Shown here: piece by piece, positions 31,424 to 53,722 of the stretch
How the letters are laid out: each line of letters starts with the position of its first letter
Numbering within the stretch: position 1 is the first letter of the stretch
DNA from: a virus
Virus record (IMG/VR): IMGVR_UViG_3300042549_005813
Direction: 5' to 3' (one strand)
DNA: 64,000 bases
The notes under the pieces: generated by a model
The model's database searches: none
Told to the model about the DNA's origin: nothing
Seen by the model: the letters and a program-made list of their open reading frames with translations, nothing else
Position numbers and translations under genes: made by a program

Positions 31424-31455
31424 ACTTGTATTGATTGATTGAAAAAGGTTTTGTA

Positions 31456-33618
31456 ATGATTCTCAATAGCGCACCTCAAGCAGAGGCCATTCTTTCCAAT
31501 GTTGGTGAAATCGGTGAGTTCCGTATCCGTAATTCAGCAAAAGCATTTAACATTCTTTCCAGCGGTTTGTACGCCAATAAGATTAAGGCGATAATTCGTG
31601 AGCTGTCATGTAATGCCATTGATAGTCACACCGCAGCAGGCACCACACAACCTTTCGAGGTGCACCTGCCAACCACACTAGAACCGTGGTTTTCTATTCG
31701 TGATTTTGGCACTGGTTTGTCACATGACCAAGTAACCAAAATTTACACCACATATTTTGAATCAACCAAAACCGAATCTAATGAGTTTATCGGTGCTCTT
31801 GGTCTTGGTTCAAAATCTCCGTTCTCTTATACTGATAACTTCACTGTCACTGCCATTCAAAATGGCCGCAAAGGCATTTACTCTGCCTTTATCAATGACG
31901 TTGGTGTGCCATCTATTGCTCTGATGGGTGAAGAAGCGGTATCAGAATCTAATGGTGTTGAGGTAAAATTCTCCGTCAATGACAGGTATGACTTTAGTAA
32001 ATTTACTGATGAAGCAGTTAAAGTGTATCGTTGGTTCCCTGTATTGCCTACAATCACAGGTAACACAATCAATATTGAACGTGTTGAATATGAAACACAG
32101 AATATTATTCCCGGTGTTCATTCAGTTAAATCTGATAGGTACAATCGTACCTCATCCATTGCTGTGATGGGTAACATTGCATATCCTATTGAAGTACCAC
32201 AAGCCGAACAATCACTTGAAGGTGTACACCAATTGTTGAAATGTGGCCTTGTGCTTGAATTTGGCATTGGTGAGTTGGACTTTCAAGCATCACGTGAAGG
32301 TTTGTCCTACATTCCATTGACCATTGATTCTATTCGTAAAAAATTGGTTGCAGTTAATGCTGCATTGACCAAGGTTCTTACTGCTGAAGCTGATGTGATT
32401 GAAGGTGAATGGGAACGTTCCAAGTTTTTGTATAACAAGAAACACCAAGAATTATGGCAAGGTGCAGTGCTTGAATATGTGACCAACACTGGTTTTGCTT
32501 TGTTTGATGTACGTGGTGCTGGGTATCATTCGTTTGATATCAAGGCAGATTTGCTTGATTTGAAGGCTATGAACATTCATATCAAACAATTTGAGTCTGA
32601 ACGTGGTAATAACCGTTGCAAGAATCGTAGTCATTCTGTATCTTATGATAAAGACCAAAAGCGTATTGAATATTTCAATATCGAGGTTGACAACATCTCA
32701 ATGTTTGTTGAGAATGATTGTAAGACCGGTTCATTTGAACGTGCTAAACACCATTTCCGCAATAAAGAGAAAAACACTTATCGTGAAAATGTGTTTGTGT
32801 TGGACAAACTGGATAAAACCAAACCAATGAATTTGGTTGCTTTCTATACAATGTTGCACAATCCACCTGCTGCACAGCGTATGGCTGCATCAAGTTTGAC
32901 TGAGAAACCACGTAAGGCTGGTGGCGGTAATGGTTTTGGTAAGAATGTGACTATTGTTCACCTTGAACGCCGTGGTGGTGCATCCAATCGCTCAGCATCA
33001 CAAGATTTTGTTTGGCGTGCCGCTGATACATTGGATAAGTTTGATAAGACTGAAAAGTTTTATTATGTTCCATTGCTAGGCTTTGTTCCTCAATTTACCA
33101 AATTGCGTCACAATGTTGACCAGTTGAAACAGTTGTTGAATAGAACCGAGATTGATGAGTTGAAAGTTAATGTGTATGGTGTCCGTAAAGGTGATATTGA
33201 AACCATCAAAAAGATGCCAAACTGGATTAACCTTGAAGAACACATTTCTACCACTGTTAATAACTTAAATACCAAAATTGGTATGGCTACCGTGATGGAA
33301 CGGCTTGACAAGCACGACATTTTCAACTATAATTACCAGACGGTGATTGATGGTGTTGATGTAAAGAGTCCTGCAAAAGCATTCTTAGATGGTTTTGTTG
33401 GTCTACCAAAGTTGAAAGGCATCCATTGGTTACAACAATTGATGCGAGCAATGCAAGTTGAGAACAACGTAGATGTTGAAGATTTGCTTGTACAATACAA
33501 ACAAAAATTGGCTGATTTTTCTAAGCGATACCCTCTGCTTGATAAATTGAGTTCGTATGCAAATGAGGGTGATGTGTGTGAGTATATTAATTTGGTTGAC
33601 ACAGTGAAAGGTGTTTAA
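31456..33618 (+). CDS. rIIA: rIIA protector from prophage-induced early lysis
   Basis: GHKL ATPase motifs IRELSCNAIDSH, RDFGTGL, GLGSKSPFSY; SREGLSY; followed by rIIB. Confidence 0.9.
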   Translation: MILNSAPQAEAILSNVGEIGEFRIRNSAKAFNILSSGLYANKIKAIIRELSCNAIDSHTAAGTTQPFEVHLPTTLEPWFSIRDFGTGLSHDQVTKIYTTYFESTKTESNEFIGALGLGSKSPFSYTDNFTVTAIQNGRKGIYSAFINDVGVPSIALMGEEAVSESNGVEVKFSVNDRYDFSKFTDEAVKVYRWFPVLPTITGNTINIERVEYETQNIIPGVHSVKSDRYNRTSSIAVMGNIAYPIEVPQAEQSLEGVHQLLKCGLVLEFGIGELDFQASREGLSYIPLTIDSIRKKLVAVNAALTKVLTAEADVIEGEWERSKFLYNKKHQELWQGAVLEYVTNTGFALFDVRGAGYHSFDIKADLLDLKAMNIHIKQFESERGNNRCKNRSHSVSYDKDQKRIEYFNIEVDNISMFVENDCKTGSFERAKHHFRNKEKNTYRENVFVLDKLDKTKPMNLVAFYTMLHNPPAAQRMAASSLTEKPRKAGGGNGFGKNVTIVHLERRGGASNRSASQDFVWRAADTLDKFDKTEKFYYVPLLGFVPQFTKLRHNVDQLKQLLNRTEIDELKVNVYGVRKGDIETIKKMPNWINLEEHISTTVNNLNTKIGMATVMERLDKHDIFNYNYQTVIDGVDVKSPAKAFLDGFVGLPKLKGIHWLQQLMRAMQVENNVDVEDLLVQYKQKLADFSKRYPLLDKLSSYANEGDVCEYINLVDTVKGV

Positions 33619-46384: not shown

Positions 46385-47836
46385 ATGATTTTTGAAATTG
46401 AAGCCACACGATTTGAAGATGGTGATAAAAGAGTTTTTCACTATGACAATATGGCTAATGTGTTGAAAGATTCTGATGGTAATGTGTTTGAATATCCGGC
46501 AGACCAAATGCCACAACATTCTTTGAAACCTTACAAACCATTTGACAAGAATCGTCCACTAAAAAAATCAAAATTAATCAGCCATTTGAAGATTCAGATG
46601 GGGTTGAGTTGTAACTATTCTTGTGATTATTGTTCACAGAAGTTTGTTGAACGCCAACCAGAAACCTCTAAAAAAGATATTGATGTTTTTATGGAGAAAT
46701 TAGATAATCTTCATTTTGATGAAGATGTTGGTTTAAGAGTTGAATTTTGGGGTGGTGAACCACTTGTTTATTGGAAAACAATGAAGCCATTGGCTGAGGC
46801 CATTGCAGAAAAATTTGACAGTTGGAAAACTAAACCTATTTTTAGTATCATTACAAATGGTTCTATTTTAACTGATGAAATTATTGATTGGTTAATGATG
46901 ATGGATTTTGCTGTGTCAATTTCACATGATGGACCGGGTCAATTTGTACGTGGTCCTGATCCTTTTGATGATCCAGAACAAAAAGAACGTATACTTGGAT
47001 TCTATCGCATGATGACAAAACTAGGTAAAAGTTTCAGTTTCAATGCAATGTTGAATGCTAAGAACCAAAGTAGAAAAGAAATCTATGATTGGTTTGTAAA
47101 TCTCACAGGAGATGAAAATGTTATTATTGGTGAAGGTTCAATGGTTGATGCCTATGATGAAGAAGGTATTTCGTATTCACTAATCACAAAACAAGAACAT
47201 TTTGATTTTAGACAGAAGGCTTTTGGTGAGTTATATGCTTCTGATGGTAAAATTGGTTTCTTGCCTCAGCTGGGTAAAATTGATGATTTAATGGCCTCAA
47301 TTTTGAGTCATAGAGAATCTAAATATTTAGGTCAAAAATGTGGTATGGACGATGAACATACAATTTCAGTTGACCTACGTGGTAATGTGATGACCTGTCA
47401 GAACGTAAGTTCTTTGGAAATCTCAAAGAATGGTGAATCGCACCATGGTGGTACATTGGATAATTATTCAAATGTTGAATTAAAATCTGTCACACATTGG
47501 TCAAATCGTAAAGAGTGTCCAGAATGTCCAGTGTTACATATATGTAAAGGTGCATGTATGTTCTTGGATGAAAAATATTGGGATATCTCATGTGCAAATG
47601 CATATTCAGATAATGTGGCCTTGTTCGCAGCTGCTTTCACTGTGATGACAAATGGTTATATACCAACTTTGATTAAGAGTGATACTTTACCATTAGATAG
47701 ACAAGACATTTTTGGTACGATTTTTGAACATAATGAAGAAAATAAGAAAAAAATCATACCAATCAAGGTAGTTAAAGAGATTATTGGAACTGTTGATGAT
47801 GTTGCGGTATATGGCAAATCTCGTTTGGAAACCTAA
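46385..47836 (+). CDS. radical SAM/SPASM peptide/protein maturase
   Basis: CNYSCDYC, WGGEPL, ITNG, SHDG; SPASM KCG...G.VMTC...CPECPVLHICKGAC...C. Confidence 0.9.
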   Translation: MIFEIEATRFEDGDKRVFHYDNMANVLKDSDGNVFEYPADQMPQHSLKPYKPFDKNRPLKKSKLISHLKIQMGLSCNYSCDYCSQKFVERQPETSKKDIDVFMEKLDNLHFDEDVGLRVEFWGGEPLVYWKTMKPLAEAIAEKFDSWKTKPIFSIITNGSILTDEIIDWLMMMDFAVSISHDGPGQFVRGPDPFDDPEQKERILGFYRMMTKLGKSFSFNAMLNAKNQSRKEIYDWFVNLTGDENVIIGEGSMVDAYDEEGISYSLITKQEHFDFRQKAFGELYASDGKIGFLPQLGKIDDLMASILSHRESKYLGQKCGMDDEHTISVDLRGNVMTCQNVSSLEISKNGESHHGGTLDNYSNVELKSVTHWSNRKECPECPVLHICKGACMFLDEKYWDISCANAYSDNVALFAAAFTVMTNGYIPTLIKSDTLPLDRQDIFGTIFEHNEENKKKIIPIKVVKEIIGTVDDVAVYGKSRLET

Positions 47837-47870: not shown

Positions 47871-48827
47871 ATGGCAACACCAGATATAAACAGTTCAATT
47901 GCAATTTCTCAAATTAATACTGAGGTTGGTAGAGCTGCAACCACAGCAAGTACGAGCTTAAACTTTTTAAATGGATTTTTGAAACCTGCTGGCACATTGG
48001 TGTTGAATCCCGGTGGTACAGTATCAACACCTAGTCCACAAAGGCAGTCAAATCCACAGAATATGAACGTATATCGTGGTGGTTTAACTCATTACCAAAA
48101 AAATAATGGTGGCAATTGTAATAATGTAAACAATAAAGAACAGAATTGTAGTGTTTCTGGTTCTTCAAGTATTCAATGTAATGCAACAAATAACTGCACT
48201 GCAATTAACTGTGCTAATTGTGATACACAAAAATGGTTACAAAGCGGAAATTGCCAATTGGCAACCACACCAGTATACAACTGCACGAACAACCAAAATT
48301 GTTTCACCTATAATTGTAATTGTTCTAAAATTATTTGTACCAAGTTGTTTGATTTGGGATTGATGAAGAAAAACATTTTTGTGGCTGACCAAGCATTTGG
48401 TGAACAATTAAAGAAAACACATCCGGATATATACAATGGTTATCGTGCATGGGCTGAGATTGTTGTTGATTGGATGGACGGTAAAGGACCTAAGATGATG
48501 CCTTGGATGTCCGATGAAGATTTTAGTGTTGCTGCAAAAAAGTGGTCTATCACATGGGCACATGATATTGCAACACCTTGGGCTGAAGAAATGGCCTATA
48601 TGATGGGTGAAAAAGAAACTGGTAGTTTGACTGGTAAAATGATGTTTGCATTTGGTACACCAATCTGTAAAGTTATTGGTGTGTGGCAACGCTGGTTTGG
48701 ACCAAGTAAGAAAGAACCCGGTTTTATTAAAGGTGCGGGCCTTGTTGTAATTTTTGTTATGTTCAAATTGGTTGCTGAACTTGGACGTTTTATTGAAAAA
48801 TTTATTCCAAAGAAGAAGGTTGCATAA
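47871..48827 (+). CDS. Asn-Cys repeat protein, putative modified substrate/precursor
   Basis: aa 78-156 hold 12 Cys, 10 of them as Asn-Cys; followed by a KIICT-initiated domain, a C-terminal hydrophobic helix and a basic tail. Confidence 0.7.
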   Translation: MATPDINSSIAISQINTEVGRAATTASTSLNFLNGFLKPAGTLVLNPGGTVSTPSPQRQSNPQNMNVYRGGLTHYQKNNGGNCNNVNNKEQNCSVSGSSSIQCNATNNCTAINCANCDTQKWLQSGNCQLATTPVYNCTNNQNCFTYNCNCSKIICTKLFDLGLMKKNIFVADQAFGEQLKKTHPDIYNGYRAWAEIVVDWMDGKGPKMMPWMSDEDFSVAAKKWSITWAHDIATPWAEEMAYMMGEKETGSLTGKMMFAFGTPICKVIGVWQRWFGPSKKEPGFIKGAGLVVIFVMFKLVAELGRFIEKFIPKKKVA

Positions 48828-49120
48828 TGCCAACATATTCCATTAAAAGACCGGTTAAAATTTTAACGGATGATAGTGCAAAATATGTTGATGAACATAT
48901 GACTTTTTTCTTTAATACATTCAGTTCAAATGCGTTTAATGCTTTAAACAAAGAAAAAAAGGAACGTGTTTATAAAGCACTAACTTACCATGAAAACATA
49001 TTAATTAAGTTGTTTGGAAATTCGTTGTTAAAGAGTGATGTTTTTCTCCCAGAATTATTAAGAAATTCAGTAGATGTAATACAAGTTCATGAATATAAAG
49101 AATGGTTGGATAAACAATGA
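48827..49120 (+). CDS. hypothetical protein (paralog of next ORF)
   Basis: NALNKEKKERVY...ILIKLF...EYKEWLDKQ. Confidence 0.55.
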   Translation: MPTYSIKRPVKILTDDSAKYVDEHMTFFFNTFSSNAFNALNKEKKERVYKALTYHENILIKLFGNSLLKSDVFLPELLRNSVDVIQVHEYKEWLDKQ

Positions 49121-49497
49121 AAAAATATTCTTACACATATTTTCCGACCATAAAAACTTATGAAGGTGATAATATATTATTGGATACTAAAGTTATTTCA
49201 GATTTTTTAAAAAAAACTTTTATGGAAAGAATTTTAAATTTAACTGAAGAAGAAAAAAATGAATATTTTACTGTAGCTTATGAGTATGAAGATGTATTGA
49301 CGGAACTTTTTGATTCTCAAGTAGAAAAAGTGGTACAAGCTAATTGGACAATGGATCCATTATACAGAAATCCAATAGAAGAATATGAAAATTATGTATC
49401 ATTACCAAAAGATGAGGATTTAACAGATGAGGAACATGAGTTGAAATTACAAGTATTAAAAGAATTTAAAGAATGGTTTGAAAAACAAAACTATTGA
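49117..49497 (+). CDS. hypothetical protein (paralog of previous ORF)
   Basis: LNLTEEEKNEYF...VLTELF...EFKEWFEKQ. Confidence 0.55.
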   Translation: MKKYSYTYFPTIKTYEGDNILLDTKVISDFLKKTFMERILNLTEEEKNEYFTVAYEYEDVLTELFDSQVEKVVQANWTMDPLYRNPIEEYENYVSLPKDEDLTDEEHELKLQVLKEFKEWFEKQNY

Positions 49498-49506
49498 TTT
49501 TTTATT

Positions 49507-50214
49507 ATGACACAAAATATTATGACAAGAGAAGACAGAGAAAAATACCATTGGTATCAAAATGCACAGAACATGTTTTGGCAAAGTCCAATTTGGGAAG
49601 TACAAACACGTTTTGATGAAGAATTTAATGAAACTCTGTTAGATGAAATTTATGGTATCGGCAAAGATATCGTATTGGGTAAAGACAAAGACCCAAACAA
49701 CAGTATATGGGACTACAGTAGACCCAACTTAGATATACTTAAACAAGAAATTATAGACATTGTAACCAAGAAAATTGTGCAAAATATTCCACAACTCAGA
49801 ATGTTAAATATTCGTGGTTGTGAACACTTCATGGGTTGGGTCAATGTGCGTGAACCAGGAGAACGCTTAGAGGTGCATGGACACACCGAATCTGCTATCG
49901 CAGCAACGTATTACATAAAGGCTAAAGAAGGTTGTGGTGACCTTGTGGCGTTTGATTCTGCACAAGCAATTGATTGGTTAAATAATACTCTAAGTAACAC
50001 ACCAAAATTGCGAGAACGTAGGTTTAAACCAGTTGAAGGTAGATTGATATTTTTTCCATCATATGTTTTGCATGGCGTTGATGAAAATAAATCTGATGAT
50101 TTACGCATTTCATTGTCAACCGACCTAAGAAAAGTTGTAGACAAAAATGCACAGAATACGGTAATTTTAAAATCGTGGGCTGGCCGCATGGCAAAAATTA
50201 GAGAATGGAAATAA
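49507..50214 (+). CDS. 2OG-Fe(II) oxygenase (TIGR02466-like)
   Basis: WVN...HGH...YY...PVEGRLIFFPSYVLHGV..N.S...RISLS. Confidence 0.85.
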   Translation: MTQNIMTREDREKYHWYQNAQNMFWQSPIWEVQTRFDEEFNETLLDEIYGIGKDIVLGKDKDPNNSIWDYSRPNLDILKQEIIDIVTKKIVQNIPQLRMLNIRGCEHFMGWVNVREPGERLEVHGHTESAIAATYYIKAKEGCGDLVAFDSAQAIDWLNNTLSNTPKLRERRFKPVEGRLIFFPSYVLHGVDENKSDDLRISLSTDLRKVVDKNAQNTVILKSWAGRMAKIREWK

Positions 50215-50744
50215 TGTTTACAAAACTGGAAACAAATTTTGAAAAACCATTATATGCAGTTACCGACCCACTAAAAAATTTCAAACATGAAGGTAAAGGT
50301 ATCGACTATAAAAAGATATGGTCACCTGAGGCTGACAAAATATATGGTGTGATACCAAAAAGGTACTGGCAGGATTTTCACTTGACAGTAATGACGATTG
50401 ACTGTATAATCCCACCACATACGGATACGGAAATTATTACTTCAATCAACTTTTACCTACAAACAGAAAGTTGTACAACTACATTCTATAGACCAAAAGT
50501 TGGTAATCCACGAACATTGCAGGTGGATAATCAAACCGATGGGTATATATATTTTGAAGAAGATTTGATTGAAGTTGGTAGTTTTGTTGCTAAAGATTAT
50601 GAGATTTGGTTACTTGATGTAAGTCAAATACATGGCGTTAAAGGTGAATTCAATTTACGTAAAGCCATTACCTTAGGAACTTTTGTTCATAAGTATGAGG
50701 ATGTACTAGAGATGCTAAAGGAAACCAATAATGTCGTTTGTTAA
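50205..50744 (+). CDS. 2OG-Fe(II)/cupin-type oxygenase
   Basis: IPPHTD...SINFY...LLDVSQIHGV...R (HxD...H). Confidence 0.7.
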   Translation: MEIMFTKLETNFEKPLYAVTDPLKNFKHEGKGIDYKKIWSPEADKIYGVIPKRYWQDFHLTVMTIDCIIPPHTDTEIITSINFYLQTESCTTTFYRPKVGNPRTLQVDNQTDGYIYFEEDLIEVGSFVAKDYEIWLLDVSQIHGVKGEFNLRKAITLGTFVHKYEDVLEMLKETNNVVC

Positions 50745-51399
50745 ATTGAAACACACATATGAATATATGCCACACACAATCATACCACAAGGTCGAGCAG
50801 ATTCATTTGCCGGCAAATATGGATTAGGTGTAAGACATAATACAATTTGGACACCAGAACCAGAAAAAGAAGTATTGTATAAGGTTGTACCGGAAAGATA
50901 TTGGAAAGATTTTCAAGTAACCAGAATGTCAATTAATAGTTTATTGTTACCACACGTTGATAATGACTTCATAACAACAATCAATTTTTATTATGACCCA
51001 CAAAATTATAGAACGGTCTTTTTCAGAGCAAAACTAGGAGCAAATTCTTGGAAAACAGAAGAAGATAGACACTATGATGTGTCTGTAAATATGAAAGATG
51101 AAAAAGTTAATGTTGAAGAATTAAAAACTAGAGTTAAAGAGTTTGTGTCTGAAAAACAAAATATGCCAACATGTGAAGAAATAACATATGTTGATGCTGT
51201 ATATACTTTTGATGATGTATATGAAATTGGATCTTTTATTGCTCAACCTAGTGAAGCATATTTGTTAGATGTGAGAATACCACATAATGTTGAACCATTA
51301 GGCGGCGAAGCAAAACTTAGAAAGGCATTTGCACTTAGAACTAAATTGTATGATTATGGCCAAGTGTATGAAATGTTACAAGAAACTGGAAACTTATAA
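50731..51399 (+). CDS. 2OG-Fe(II)/cupin-type oxygenase (paralog of previous)
   Basis: LLPHVD...TINFY...LLDVRIPHNV...R. Confidence 0.7.
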   Translation: MSFVKLKHTYEYMPHTIIPQGRADSFAGKYGLGVRHNTIWTPEPEKEVLYKVVPERYWKDFQVTRMSINSLLLPHVDNDFITTINFYYDPQNYRTVFFRAKLGANSWKTEEDRHYDVSVNMKDEKVNVEELKTRVKEFVSEKQNMPTCEEITYVDAVYTFDDVYEIGSFIAQPSEAYLLDVRIPHNVEPLGGEAKLRKAFALRTKLYDYGQVYEMLQETGNL

Positions 51400-51409
51400 A
51401 GGATAATAA

Positions 51410-52204
51410 ATGTTTTTCGAAAAATTAGACTATACAGTAGATATTGAAAAATTAAAACAAGAAGTGAGAGAAAGTGTTTTCACTTTAGGTGACCAAGTTA
51501 TACAAGGTGAAGAATATGAAACTCCAAAATACAATGGTTTTGGTGGTTGGAGTTTAATGTGTAAAGAAGCTACATGGACTGGCGGTTGGGAAGCTGTTCA
51601 ACTGGAAAAAGGACAAACACTAGAATCCTTTTTACCAACAAATGAACTGGTACTAAAAGCTTACAAATACTTTAATATTTCTCATGGATTAGAACATGAT
51701 AAACCAACTGAAGCTTATGTTGGTGAAATTAAAAAAGTAATGGACGACATTCGTGAAATGGGTTTTTATCCAACCAGAGTTAGGGTTACTTGTTTAAAAG
51801 CACACTCAAAAAGTTTGGTGCATAGAGATGCTGAAGAAACAGAATATATGGCACGTATTCATATTCCATTATTTACGAATAAAAAGTGTGTGCATATTTG
51901 TCAAGGTAAAAACTTACATATGCCAGCAGATGGTGGTGTTTGGATGCTTTGGGTGAATCAATGGCACCAAATTAGAAATGATTCGGATGAGGATAGATAT
52001 CATATCATCATGGATGCTTATGATACAAAAAAAGTAACAAAATTCTTTAATTATGCCGGTGATTTTGAACAATTACAGGATTACGTCAGAGGATTCCGAG
52101 AAAAAATTGATGAGGTTGAATTAACCGATGAAGATATTGATTTTTTTGAGGCAATTAGAGAACGATATGTTACCAAAAAAGTTAGAGATAATGAATTTAT
52201 TTAA
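51410..52204 (+). CDS. aspartyl/asparaginyl beta-hydroxylase family protein
   Basis: HRD...RIHIPL.TN...HMPADG...NQWHQIRN.SDEDRYHIIMD. Confidence 0.8.
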   Translation: MFFEKLDYTVDIEKLKQEVRESVFTLGDQVIQGEEYETPKYNGFGGWSLMCKEATWTGGWEAVQLEKGQTLESFLPTNELVLKAYKYFNISHGLEHDKPTEAYVGEIKKVMDDIREMGFYPTRVRVTCLKAHSKSLVHRDAEETEYMARIHIPLFTNKKCVHICQGKNLHMPADGGVWMLWVNQWHQIRNDSDEDRYHIIMDAYDTKKVTKFFNYAGDFEQLQDYVRGFREKIDEVELTDEDIDFFEAIRERYVTKKVRDNEFI

Positions 52205-52207
52205 ATT

Positions 52208-53722
52208 ATGACAGATACACATGGAATTATTTTCACCGGCATGGAGAGGACTAGAACAATTAGTCGACCAGCTGGTGCAGCAAGATTAAGAACAGTTTTA
52301 GACCAACATGGTTACAACGTTGAAGTTGTTGACTATTTTGGTAATTTCACAGATGAAGAACTTGAAACAATCTGCGCTAGATTTATTGGACCAAAAACTT
52401 TGTTTGTTGGTATTAGTATTACATTCATCTATGCATTTGATAAATTAAATAAAATATTCAAACACGTTAAAGAAAAATATCCACACGTAAAAACGCTGAT
52501 TGGTGGCAATGAAACACCAATTGATGGTGTAGATTTGACTCAAGTTGATAGGGTGTTTTGGGGTTATGCTGAAGAAGCGGTATTACACTATCTAAAATTT
52601 TTAACCAAGAAACGTTTAGATGATTTAAAATGGGTGCCATACAGAGATACACTTTCTATCAATGCAGAAATGGCATATAAGAATGATGATACGGATTTAT
52701 CTATTAAGTGGTTAGAGAGTGATTTAATCAAAAATAATTTTTTGCCTATTGAAATTAGTAGAGGATGTATTTTTAGGTGTAGATTCTGTGCATTCCCTTT
52801 GTTAGGTAAAAAGAAGAATGATTACATTCGTCATGTGGATAATTTGGCAGATGAATTTCGTAGAAATTATGAATTGTTTGGTGTTAACAACTATTGGTTC
52901 AATGATGATACATTTAACGACAACGTGGTCAAATTGGATTATGTTGCTGAGGCAATCGCCAAGAGTGGTGTTAAGATAACTTACACAGCATTTTTACGTG
53001 CAGATTTGATTGAGAGATTTCCTGAAACTATTTCTATGTTGGCTGATACTGGTTTGGTTGCTGCAACATTTGGTTTGGAAACTTTTCATCCAGAAGCGAA
53101 GAAAGCAATTGGAAAAGGCCTAGATAATGAGAGACAGTTTGAAGCAATTCGACAATTAAAAAAATATAAACCAATCTACACATATACGGGTATGATATGT
53201 GGTTTGCCTGGTGAACCTATATCGAGTGTTTACAAAAGTCAAAAGATATTGTTGGAACAAAATTTTGAAGTGTTTGATAATTGGGATTGGTGGCCTTTGT
53301 TAATTAGAAAAGGTTCTGTAAGTCGCCTAAGTGAATTTGAAAAGGAATGTGGAAAGTGGGGTTACACTGAAATGTCACCCGATGAATATACAATTTCAAA
53401 AGAGGATGATGATATGAGATATGGTGGAGATAGTGGTATAATGGCTTGGAAAAGTAAATACTCTAATTACTTTACGGCAAGAATCATTACAGCATTGTTG
53501 AATAATGAAACAGAGGAGCATCGTATTGCTGCTGGTAAATCCATTTATGGAAATGCCAACAAAGGTGTTAGTATTAACCATGATGTATTTGAATTGGTTG
53601 GTATGGGTATTGATATAAAAGATATTATTGACGGAACATTTGATAAAACTTTTTTGAATAAAAAAATTGAAGAAGCGGATCAAACTATCCTTGAATACAA
53701 AAAATTAAAGTTAGGATTATAA
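52208..53722 (+). CDS. cobalamin-binding-type radical SAM protein (class B methyltransferase-like)
   Basis: N-terminal RPAGAARL...GYNVEVVD...IGG domain; EISRGCIFRCRFC; DDTFND; FLRADL; GLETF; GLPGE. Confidence 0.85.
   Translation: MTDTHGIIFTGMERTRTISRPAGAARLRTVLDQHGYNVEVVDYFGNFTDEELETICARFIGPKTLFVGISITFIYAFDKLNKIFKHVKEKYPHVKTLIGGNETPIDGVDLTQVDRVFWGYAEEAVLHYLKFLTKKRLDDLKWVPYRDTLSINAEMAYKNDDTDLSIKWLESDLIKNNFLPIEISRGCIFRCRFCAFPLLGKKKNDYIRHVDNLADEFRRNYELFGVNNYWFNDDTFNDNVVKLDYVAEAIAKSGVKITYTAFLRADLIERFPETISMLADTGLVAATFGLETFHPEAKKAIGKGLDNERQFEAIRQLKKYKPIYTYTGMICGLPGEPISSVYKSQKILLEQNFEVFDNWDWWPLLIRKGSVSRLSEFEKECGKWGYTEMSPDEYTISKEDDDMRYGGDSGIMAWKSKYSNYFTARIITALLNNETEEHRIAAGKSIYGNANKGVSINHDVFELVGMGIDIKDIIDGTFDKTFLNKKIEEADQTILEYKKLKLGL

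Follow-up and report, generated by a model that had tools for sequence, protein, structure and literature searches.

An Asn-Cys-rich phage protein encoded beside a radical SAM/SPASM enzyme: a candidate enzymatically cross-linked, tail-fibre-associated adhesin

We analysed a 64,000-nucleotide (nt) stretch of DNA from the IMG/VR virus record IMGVR_UViG_3300042549_005813 (the window), and within it a gene whose 318-amino-acid (aa) product carries a dense run of Asn-Cys dipeptides. This is the only Asn-Cys-rich open reading frame (ORF) of the 87-kb record. It is preceded by the gene for a radical SAM/SPASM enzyme, which ends 34 nt upstream. The 318-aa protein consists of three separable modules, namely an N-terminal motif (N-motif), an Asn-Cys core and a C-terminal domain that we call KIICT after its invariant opening residues. 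The enzyme, the protein and its modules lie in the window as follows:

46385..47836, + strand: 483-aa radical SAM/SPASM enzyme, proposed to modify the Asn-Cys core (Pfam, phrog and motifs)
47871..48827, + strand: the 318-aa Asn-Cys protein (open reading frame and translation)
47871..48101, + strand: N-terminal motif module, residues 1-77, defined by alignment (consensus 'MTLPxSGxIxVSxINxExG...LxFLNGxIKP...'); a possible attachment module
48102..48326, + strand: Asn-Cys core, residues 78-152, proposed as the substrate region; Asn precedes 10 of its 11 Cys
48327..48827, + strand: the 'KIICT' C-terminal helical domain, residues 153-318, in which K153, I154, I155 and C156 are invariant

A first-pass annotation of this DNA had singled out residues 78-156, encoded by 48102-48338, as a core segment with 12 Cys, and its account of the Cys residues and of what precedes them proved exact when these positions were read again; the N-terminus that it quoted was also correct. 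The Cys residues of the segment stand at positions 83, 93, 103, 109, 114, 117, 128, 138, 144, 149, 151 and 156. The preceding residue is Asn for ten of them, Gln for C103 and Ile for C156, and Asn makes up 20 of the 79 residues. While the segment is as quoted, its far boundary needed to be moved, as C156 belongs to the invariant K-I-I-C that opens the next domain and thus falls outside the core. When the segment was shuffled 100,000 times, the mean number of Asn-Cys dipeptides was 3.0 (standard deviation 1.4) and ten or more arose at a rate of only 1e-5. The pairing of Asn with Cys is therefore not due to composition alone. Scans against Pfam, PHROGs and NCBIfam gave no match for the 318-aa protein.

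We then compared the protein with its relatives, of which a search of 5.8 billion proteins returned 519, none of them named and none with a Pfam domain in the N-terminal half. In an alignment of 96 full-length homologs (44-92% identity), 11 of 12 Cys columns were kept in at least 95 of the 96 sequences and the others in 80-83. Asn preceded 79% of the core Cys in these homologs, and the Asn residues preceding C109, C117 and C138 were invariant. A second alignment comprised 42 more diverse sequences containing the N-motif and core, bacterial ones included. Here 482 of 598 Cys were preceded by Asn and the remainder almost only by Ala, Gln or Asp, such that one of these four residues stood before Cys in 99% of cases. 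The enrichment in Asn-Cys pairs noted in the first-pass annotation is thus kept among homologs, with Asn before 79-81% of core Cys in the two alignments. Moreover, the number of Cys per core in the second alignment ranged from 11 to 18, with even counts in 20 sequences and odd counts in 22. Since the counts vary and even and odd numbers are equally common, a fixed disulfide map does not fit the core; this agrees with the earlier opinion that the Cys residues are unlikely to form ordinary disulfides, and a fixed disulfide knot was dropped because of the varying parity. An antifreeze-like beta-helix, for which composition was the sole basis, was also dropped, and so was the reading as a membrane-anchored protein, since the last helix has no more than moderate hydrophobicity and forms part of the predicted bundle.

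The enzyme encoded upstream belongs to the radical SAM superfamily, as judged from its cluster motif and from a match to the Pfam model Radical_SAM (PF04055) above the gathering score (39.5 bits against a cut-off of 29.5). The CxxxCxxC motif at residues 76-83 (C76-x3-C80-x2-C83) was invariant in 35 sequences, and the enzyme matched phrog_1802 with an E value of 2e-62. For the SPASM subfamily we used the pattern CX9-15GX4C, followed by CX2CX5CX3C and then by a further C. The enzyme carries all seven of these Cys residues (C319-x13-G333-x4-C338, C378-x2-C381-x5-C387-x3-C391 and C403), each invariant in the same number of sequences, and NCBIfam models for anSME, CcpM and DynA align over its whole length. 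No Pfam SPASM model matched at an E value of 0.01, so that its placement in the SPASM subfamily rests on the motif together with the full-length alignments. The nearest NCBIfam models are those of maturases for Cys thioethers or Cys-rich peptides, all of them matched below cut-off: PapB (NF047865; score 79 against a cut-off of 340), CcpM (70 against 500), QhpD, SCIFF (TIGR03974; 51 against 425) and CefB (50 against 600). With these scores the enzyme falls below the curated equivalog cut-offs of the ranthipeptide and sactipeptide maturase families. Among sequences in the PDB the first match was 8vpo and the second CteB (5wgg), with anSME (4k36) also present. The N-terminal extension ahead of the radical SAM core measures about 65-75 residues, of which about 45 precede the stretch that aligns to 8vpo and CteB.

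The relation between the enzyme and the Asn-Cys run was followed across other loci. In viral loci with a full-length homolog of the 318-aa protein (35-92% identity), the enzyme (64-98% identity) was encoded directly upstream wherever there was enough upstream DNA, and in seven viral loci an insert of 0.7-1.8 kb separated the two genes. Scanning 185,579 species genomes for the enzyme gave 171 relatives, from which 80 loci were kept, mostly from Burkholderiales and some from Alphaproteobacteria, Verrucomicrobia and Bacteroidota metagenome-assembled genomes (MAGs). We limited the count of pairings to the 51 bacterial or prophage loci in which 4.5 kb or more of upstream DNA was available; the enzyme in these is 35-70% identical. 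An ORF with an Asn-Cys/CxC run lay on the same strand within 4.5 kb of the enzyme in 50 of these 51 loci, and in 45 of the 50 the run lay within 8 residues of the C-terminus. The enzyme's strand was shared by 65 of 70 ORFs with an Asn-Cys run. Most of the host genomes have a G+C content of about 52-66%, at which AAY-TGY codons are rare, and control loci (273 kb) contained only 6 short chance matches, on the minus strand.

The carriers of the run belong to several unrelated families, many of them being clear tail fibres, and the run is the sole feature that they have in common. They include fibres with PHROG tail-fibre matches, proteins in which the run is followed by a Hint domain, and small proteins of N-motif and core encoded between a Peptidase_S74 fibre and the enzyme. 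Enzymes at least 50% identical to the one studied here (loci L080, L081, L083, L084 and L130) pair with true homologs of the core, which may lie on either side of the enzyme and may or may not carry KIICT; the exception is L082 (62% identity), where the contig begins at the enzyme. Enzymes at most 48% identical pair with fibre tails. In Paraburkholderia and Polynucleobacter the homolog is 131-134 aa long from its MTLP start, has no KIICT domain and is encoded upstream of the enzyme, between it and a Peptidase_S74 fibre. Two cultured phages, Achromobacter phage JWF and Ralstonia phage RSP15, encode a 44% identical enzyme within the tail-fibre module. In JWF gp028 the run ('...QNCNCDCNCNCS') stands directly ahead of a Hint domain, and the side tail fibre of RSP15 has the C-terminus '...NTNCQCGN'. 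Conversely, loci in which only KIICT is found, on glycine-rich proteins, lack the enzyme, except for L043, where a 42% identical enzyme lies 4 kb away. From this co-occurrence over differing carriers and arrangements it follows that the enzyme tracks the Asn-Cys run, and not gene order, the N-motif or the KIICT domain. The repeated Asn-Cys unit, which the first-pass annotation had taken for an iterated enzyme recognition site, thus behaves as the target of a dedicated enzyme, being encoded next to it in the homolog loci with enough upstream DNA and almost always occurring in runs beside its relatives in distant phages and prophages.

The same loci yielded several side observations. In L078 (the JWF gp028 locus), L090 and L099 (Burkholderia paludis MSh1) the sequence reads '...NCNCNCACT CFPAGT...', that is, the run and then the Hint domain; self-cleavage of Hint in these proteins would give a mature protein that ends with the run, like the many fibres that have the run as their C-terminus. 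Two loci from Rhodospirillales MAGs (L150 and L151) encode a fibre-like protein with a different Cys repeat, 'YNCMSYCSYCSYCSYCTYCNCNCDCG', before the Asn-Cys run, and the enzyme family may accept [SY]-C repeats of this kind too. Three to four copies of the enzyme per genome were seen in L088/L090/L093/L147 (one Burkholderiaceae MAG) and in L107/L155/L157, each copy with its own Asn-Cys-tailed fibre gene, which suggests that such a genome harbours several prophages or tailocin-like elements. In a Polynucleobacter prophage (L084, 9467-12334) the region downstream of the enzyme contains an ORF resembling a PP-loop ATPase ('SGGIDS') and a cupin-like ORF, which, from their sequences, may be further tailoring genes.

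Our preferred reading, to which we give a probability of about 0.6, is that the 318-aa protein is an adhesin-like accessory associated with the tail fibre of an uncultured T4-like phage from an aquatic setting, and that its core is the substrate of the enzyme and becomes cross-linked through Cys thioethers. We infer the modification itself, its chemistry, the location in the virion and the processing by analogy with known systems. Specifically, residues 78-152 would be the substrate of the SPASM enzyme encoded 34 nt upstream. A Cys thiol would be bound on an auxiliary Fe-S cluster, as in NxxcB, PapB, CteB and QhpD, and the 5'-deoxyadenosyl radical would take a hydrogen from a residue close by, the likeliest being the Asn (or Ala, Gln or Asp) beside the Cys, after which the C-S bond would form. 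Repetition along the core would produce a multiply cross-linked knot that is redox-independent and protease-resistant. The N-motif would probably dock the protein onto the fibre. KIICT and the small partner proteins described below would constitute a separate module for assembly or processing, the possible removal of which would leave the Asn-Cys run at the end of the mature protein, as in most relatives.

A number of points weigh against this reading. All of the NCBIfam maturase matches are far under cut-off, and several of them, including the best (PapB), cover the radical SAM core alone; anSME, which aligns with the enzyme over its full length, makes formylglycine and no cross-links. The locus lies among phoH and oxygenase genes, outside any recognisable fibre module. 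AlphaFold2 yields no model of the core, and so neither its geometry nor its oligomeric state. In addition, many of the loci are interrelated (T4-like aquatic phages on the one hand, Burkholderiales prophages on the other), so that the counts overstate the number of independent events; it is the diversity of carriers and arrangements that carries the argument, not the raw locus counts.

In the AlphaFold2 prediction of the full-length protein, KIICT forms an all-alpha bundle with a predicted local distance difference test score (pLDDT) above 90, the N-motif reaches about 80 and the core only 38-55. When the N-motif and core were predicted alone with a more diverse alignment, the pLDDT was 44.5, with 29-41 for the core and 52-75 for residues 1-40. 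Comparison with the PDB by Foldseek gave no match at an E value of 0.001 or lower, and a search of BFVD returned homologs only. The best hit in a wide VIA-align search was to NEL E3-ligase domains with a Z score of 5.8, which is below the level that is meaningful for helical bundles. The ESM Atlas gave only clusters of viral hypothetical proteins, plus a GP38 cluster with a template modelling (TM) score of 0.28. An adhesin of the T4 gp38 type (PF05268) or a Gly_rich_2 protein (PF21722) was consequently rejected as an identity for the 318-aa protein, which has no Pfam match and reaches just that TM score.

The failure of AlphaFold2 on the isolated chain would be expected if the fold needed metal or partner chains, as it might if the core were an ordinary Cys-rich module that binds metal (Zn or Fe) or forms disulfides after lysis, the enzyme acting elsewhere. 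The fibre tips of T4 gp37 contain iron sites made by HxH runs, and CxC runs could line a trimer axis in a like manner. We nevertheless consider this explanation unlikely, because the enzyme is tied to the run over unrelated carriers and gene orders (in 50 of 51 loci and in JWF and RSP15) and no other common candidate substrate was seen beside it. Moreover, Asn is conserved besides Cys, for which metal binding alone does not account, and odd and even numbers of Cys occur equally often.

Under the preferred reading, that of a cross-linked accessory of the fibre, the N-motif would have an anchoring role. The motif was conserved in three alignments, and a profile of N-motif and core matched 124 clusters (at 50% identity) among 1.84 billion representatives; a word-based search with residues 1-80 found close relatives only. 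Most of these clusters are proteins of 125-170 aa that stand alone and have the Asn-Cys run at their C-terminus, while a minority are about 290-330 aa long and, in those checked, carry KIICT. True homologs of the core in such a stand-alone form are encoded in prophage tail-fibre modules beside the enzyme. Two metagenomic proteins, P0197 and P0230, consist of the N-motif, a Gly_rich_2 (PF21722) domain of about 200 aa that matches tail PHROGs, and a C-terminal Asn-Cys core. Such combinations make the N-motif an independent module and show that one protein can bear both a glycine-rich and an Asn-Cys module. The first-pass annotation had proposed a leader or anchor at the N-terminus. The anchor part is plausible, in that the N-terminus is a conserved module common to small proteins and to tail-type proteins with Gly_rich_2; the leader part is not supported, as the motif can lie about 200 residues from the core, the fibre substrates of related enzymes do not have it, and no protease or exporter is encoded nearby. 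Since the small stand-alone homologs directly follow Peptidase_S74 tail-fibre genes, a role of the N-motif as an attachment module is plausible from sequence and gene order.

The KIICT domain has a distribution of its own. It also ends glycine-rich tail-type proteins of the PF21722 kind as well as gp028 (616 aa) of the Synechococcus phage SynMITS9220M01, which is encoded beside fibre genes, and no radical SAM gene lies near either type of carrier. When cultured phages were searched by tblastn with the 318-aa protein, KIICT alone was matched, in SynMITS9220M01; megablast of 10 kb against cultured phages gave no match. In nearly all loci (L033-L075) the KIICT gene is followed by a small ORF of 52-147 aa with the motif '..DK.R.FQM.TD.ADIL.K..', the start of which overlaps the stop of the KIICT gene. 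A hidden Markov model (HMM) built from the partners of Asn-Cys-type proteins matched those of glycine-rich proteins with E values of 3e-14 to 8e-6. KIICT and the small ORF are thus a two-gene module, found on Asn-Cys-type and on glycine-rich proteins and independent of the radical SAM enzyme. The phage studied here has two tandem paralogs of the small ORF:

48827..49120, + strand: small partner protein 1, 97 aa, a member of the partner HMM family, whose start overlaps the stop of the KIICT gene
49117..49497, + strand: small partner protein 2, of 126 aa and paralogous to partner 1 (partner HMM E value 7e-15; BLASTP against partner 1, 1e-3)

What comes after the Asn-Cys run in relatives is either the stop codon or a Hint domain with Cys as its first residue; in the present protein KIICT, with its invariant Cys, takes that place. 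By analogy, KIICT may be a removable assembly module. The processing of fibre C-termini offers a parallel, since in the Peptidase_S74 chaperone and in the Hint domains of JWF gp028 and of the Burkholderia paludis prophage a removable domain likewise comes right after the functional end of the fibre. However, KIICT is all-alpha and has neither a Pfam match nor a convincing solved fold, and its cleavage is only conjectured from this parallel. A self-cleaving domain of the Hint or intein type was rejected for residues 153-318, which are predicted to be all-alpha and have no Pfam match, whereas Hint is all-beta.

Further downstream, the following companion genes share the orientation of the enzyme and the Asn-Cys gene:

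49507-50214, + strand: 2-oxoglutarate (2OG)-Fe(II) oxygenase (Pfam/NCBIfam)
50205-50744 and 50731-51399, + strand: two unassigned paralogs, co-oriented companions
51410-52204, + strand: Asp/Asn beta-hydroxylase-like protein (PF05118; Pfam/NCBIfam)
52208-53722, + strand: B12-binding radical SAM protein (Pfam/NCBIfam)

No terminator-like site was found on the + strand between 46800 and 53700. The phage is T4-like, with rIIA at 31435-33618. Genes that resemble baseplate genes (gp26/gp51; from the first reading only) lie near 59-63 kb, about 10 kb from the Asn-Cys gene. The companion genes at 49507..53722 are syntenic in T4-like loci. In the prophage loci the companion enzymes were not found, save for a few weak matches to the 2OG oxygenase, and because of this absence they were not counted as part of the system; cultured phages gave no match to the Asp/Asn hydroxylase-like protein. 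The core might be modified further by these neighbours, namely the Asn hydroxylase-like, 2OG and B12 radical SAM enzymes. A hydroxylation site of the epidermal growth factor (EGF)-like type, C-x-[DN]-x4-[FY]-x-C-x-C, was looked for and rejected: the nearest sequence, C138-T-N-N-Q-N-C-F-T-Y-N-C-N-C, has Tyr where Cys is needed. Other Asn residues might still be hydroxylated.

These neighbours bear on a second alternative, that the enzyme does modify the core but by other chemistry, such as formylglycine formation, C-H functionalisation of Cys or Asn, or C-C or C-N links, possibly together with the downstream hydroxylase-like and 2OG enzymes. Synteny of the Asp/Asn beta-hydroxylase homolog extends to every T4-like locus with enough flank, anSME (4k36) and TIGR03942 align over nearly the whole enzyme, and its N-terminal extension is shorter than that of CteB. 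We judge such chemistry improbable all the same. The anSME motif C/S-x-P/A-x-R is absent, with Arg at +4 for 0 of 13 Cys, and the score against TIGR03942 is 45.9 where the cut-off is 349, which led us to reject membership of the anSME family. Furthermore, the hydroxylase and 2OG genes are absent, bar the few weak 2OG matches, from prophage loci that keep the pair of enzyme and run.

Thioether cross-linking of the core, as we propose it, has its closest parallel in NxxcB, the enzyme that modifies the streptococcal RaS-RiPP (a ribosomally made peptide with post-translational modifications) NxxcA by joining the sulfur of Cys to the beta-carbon of Asn, and which also accepts Ala, Gln and Asp (PMC9389541). 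Both systems combine a SPASM-type enzyme with repeated motifs of Asn and Cys, and the acceptor range of Asn, Ala, Gln and Asp is that of the residues before Cys here. They differ in that Asn and Cys are adjacent in the phage protein and not spaced as N-x-x-C, and in that the substrate is a phage protein of 125-320 aa or the end of a fibre and not a short secreted peptide; as NxxcB was not among the NCBIfam matches, the likeness is set by the motif and by the description of the acceptors. PapB, which makes freyrasin, and CteB, which acts on SCIFF, share the SPASM architecture and iterated Cys motifs in the substrate, PapB being the best NCBIfam match. However, their scores are far below the cut-offs, no N-terminal domain of the full length of a RiPP recognition element is apparent in the phage enzyme, and its substrate is a phage protein of structural type. 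QhpD is a SPASM enzyme that forms several Cys thioethers in the gamma subunit of quinohemoprotein amine dehydrogenase (QhpC), which stays a functional subunit. Here too the substrate would stay a protein subunit and yield no natural product, and the QhpD model TIGR03906 matches the enzyme at 9e-18. That match scores 64 against a cut-off of 453 and covers the radical SAM core only; the acceptors of QhpD are Asp and Glu, and its setting is unrelated.

A bacteriocin, signalling peptide or other RiPP natural product that is released, with the N-terminus as leader and KIICT as follower and both cut off, is the least credible alternative, for although the nearest enzyme models are RiPP maturases and the layout of leader, core and follower is like that of RiPP precursors, Pfam and PHROGs scans found no peptidase and no exporter or transporter in the operon, the same runs end bona fide tail fibres, the small core proteins are encoded inside prophage tail-fibre modules, and the N-motif can be 200 residues away from the core. 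The ranthipeptide or sactipeptide layout was likewise rejected, since the precursor would be 318 aa long (125-170 aa when stand-alone) and the genes around it encode oxygenases, small helical proteins and a B12 radical SAM protein.

Beyond the preferred reading of the single protein, a more general picture can be drawn, which we offer tentatively and with rather less than even confidence. Tailed phages of several unrelated lineages would staple Asn-Cys runs at their fibre tips with a dedicated SPASM enzyme, and the present phage would do so on a separate adhesin-like protein that is freed from a self-removing KIICT domain. In full-text searches of the literature, no description came up of a radical SAM enzyme with a phage fibre or Asn-Cys proteins as its substrate; one cyanophage paper mentions a different radical SAM gene, which it calls an 'antibiotic synthesis' gene. 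What is new here is the internally placed Asn-Cys core in a small adhesin-like protein fused to KIICT, together with the assignment of which neighbour goes with which module. The motif can sit within a larger protein, fused to a second widespread module (KIICT and its small partner). To our knowledge, the known cases of cross-linking by radical SAM/SPASM enzymes concern small secreted peptides and one subunit of a bacterial enzyme, and none has been described for virus particles. If the reading is true, it would represent a new class of enzymatic post-translational modification of virions and a new type of virion maturation, and it would explain why an unannotated radical SAM gene recurs in tail-fibre modules, among them those of culturable Achromobacter and Ralstonia phages. 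It would also provide a large natural set of enzymes and substrates with a very simple Asn-Cys recognition motif for peptide-stapling biotechnology. Host-range engineering would be affected as well, since fibres transferred without the enzyme may not mature.

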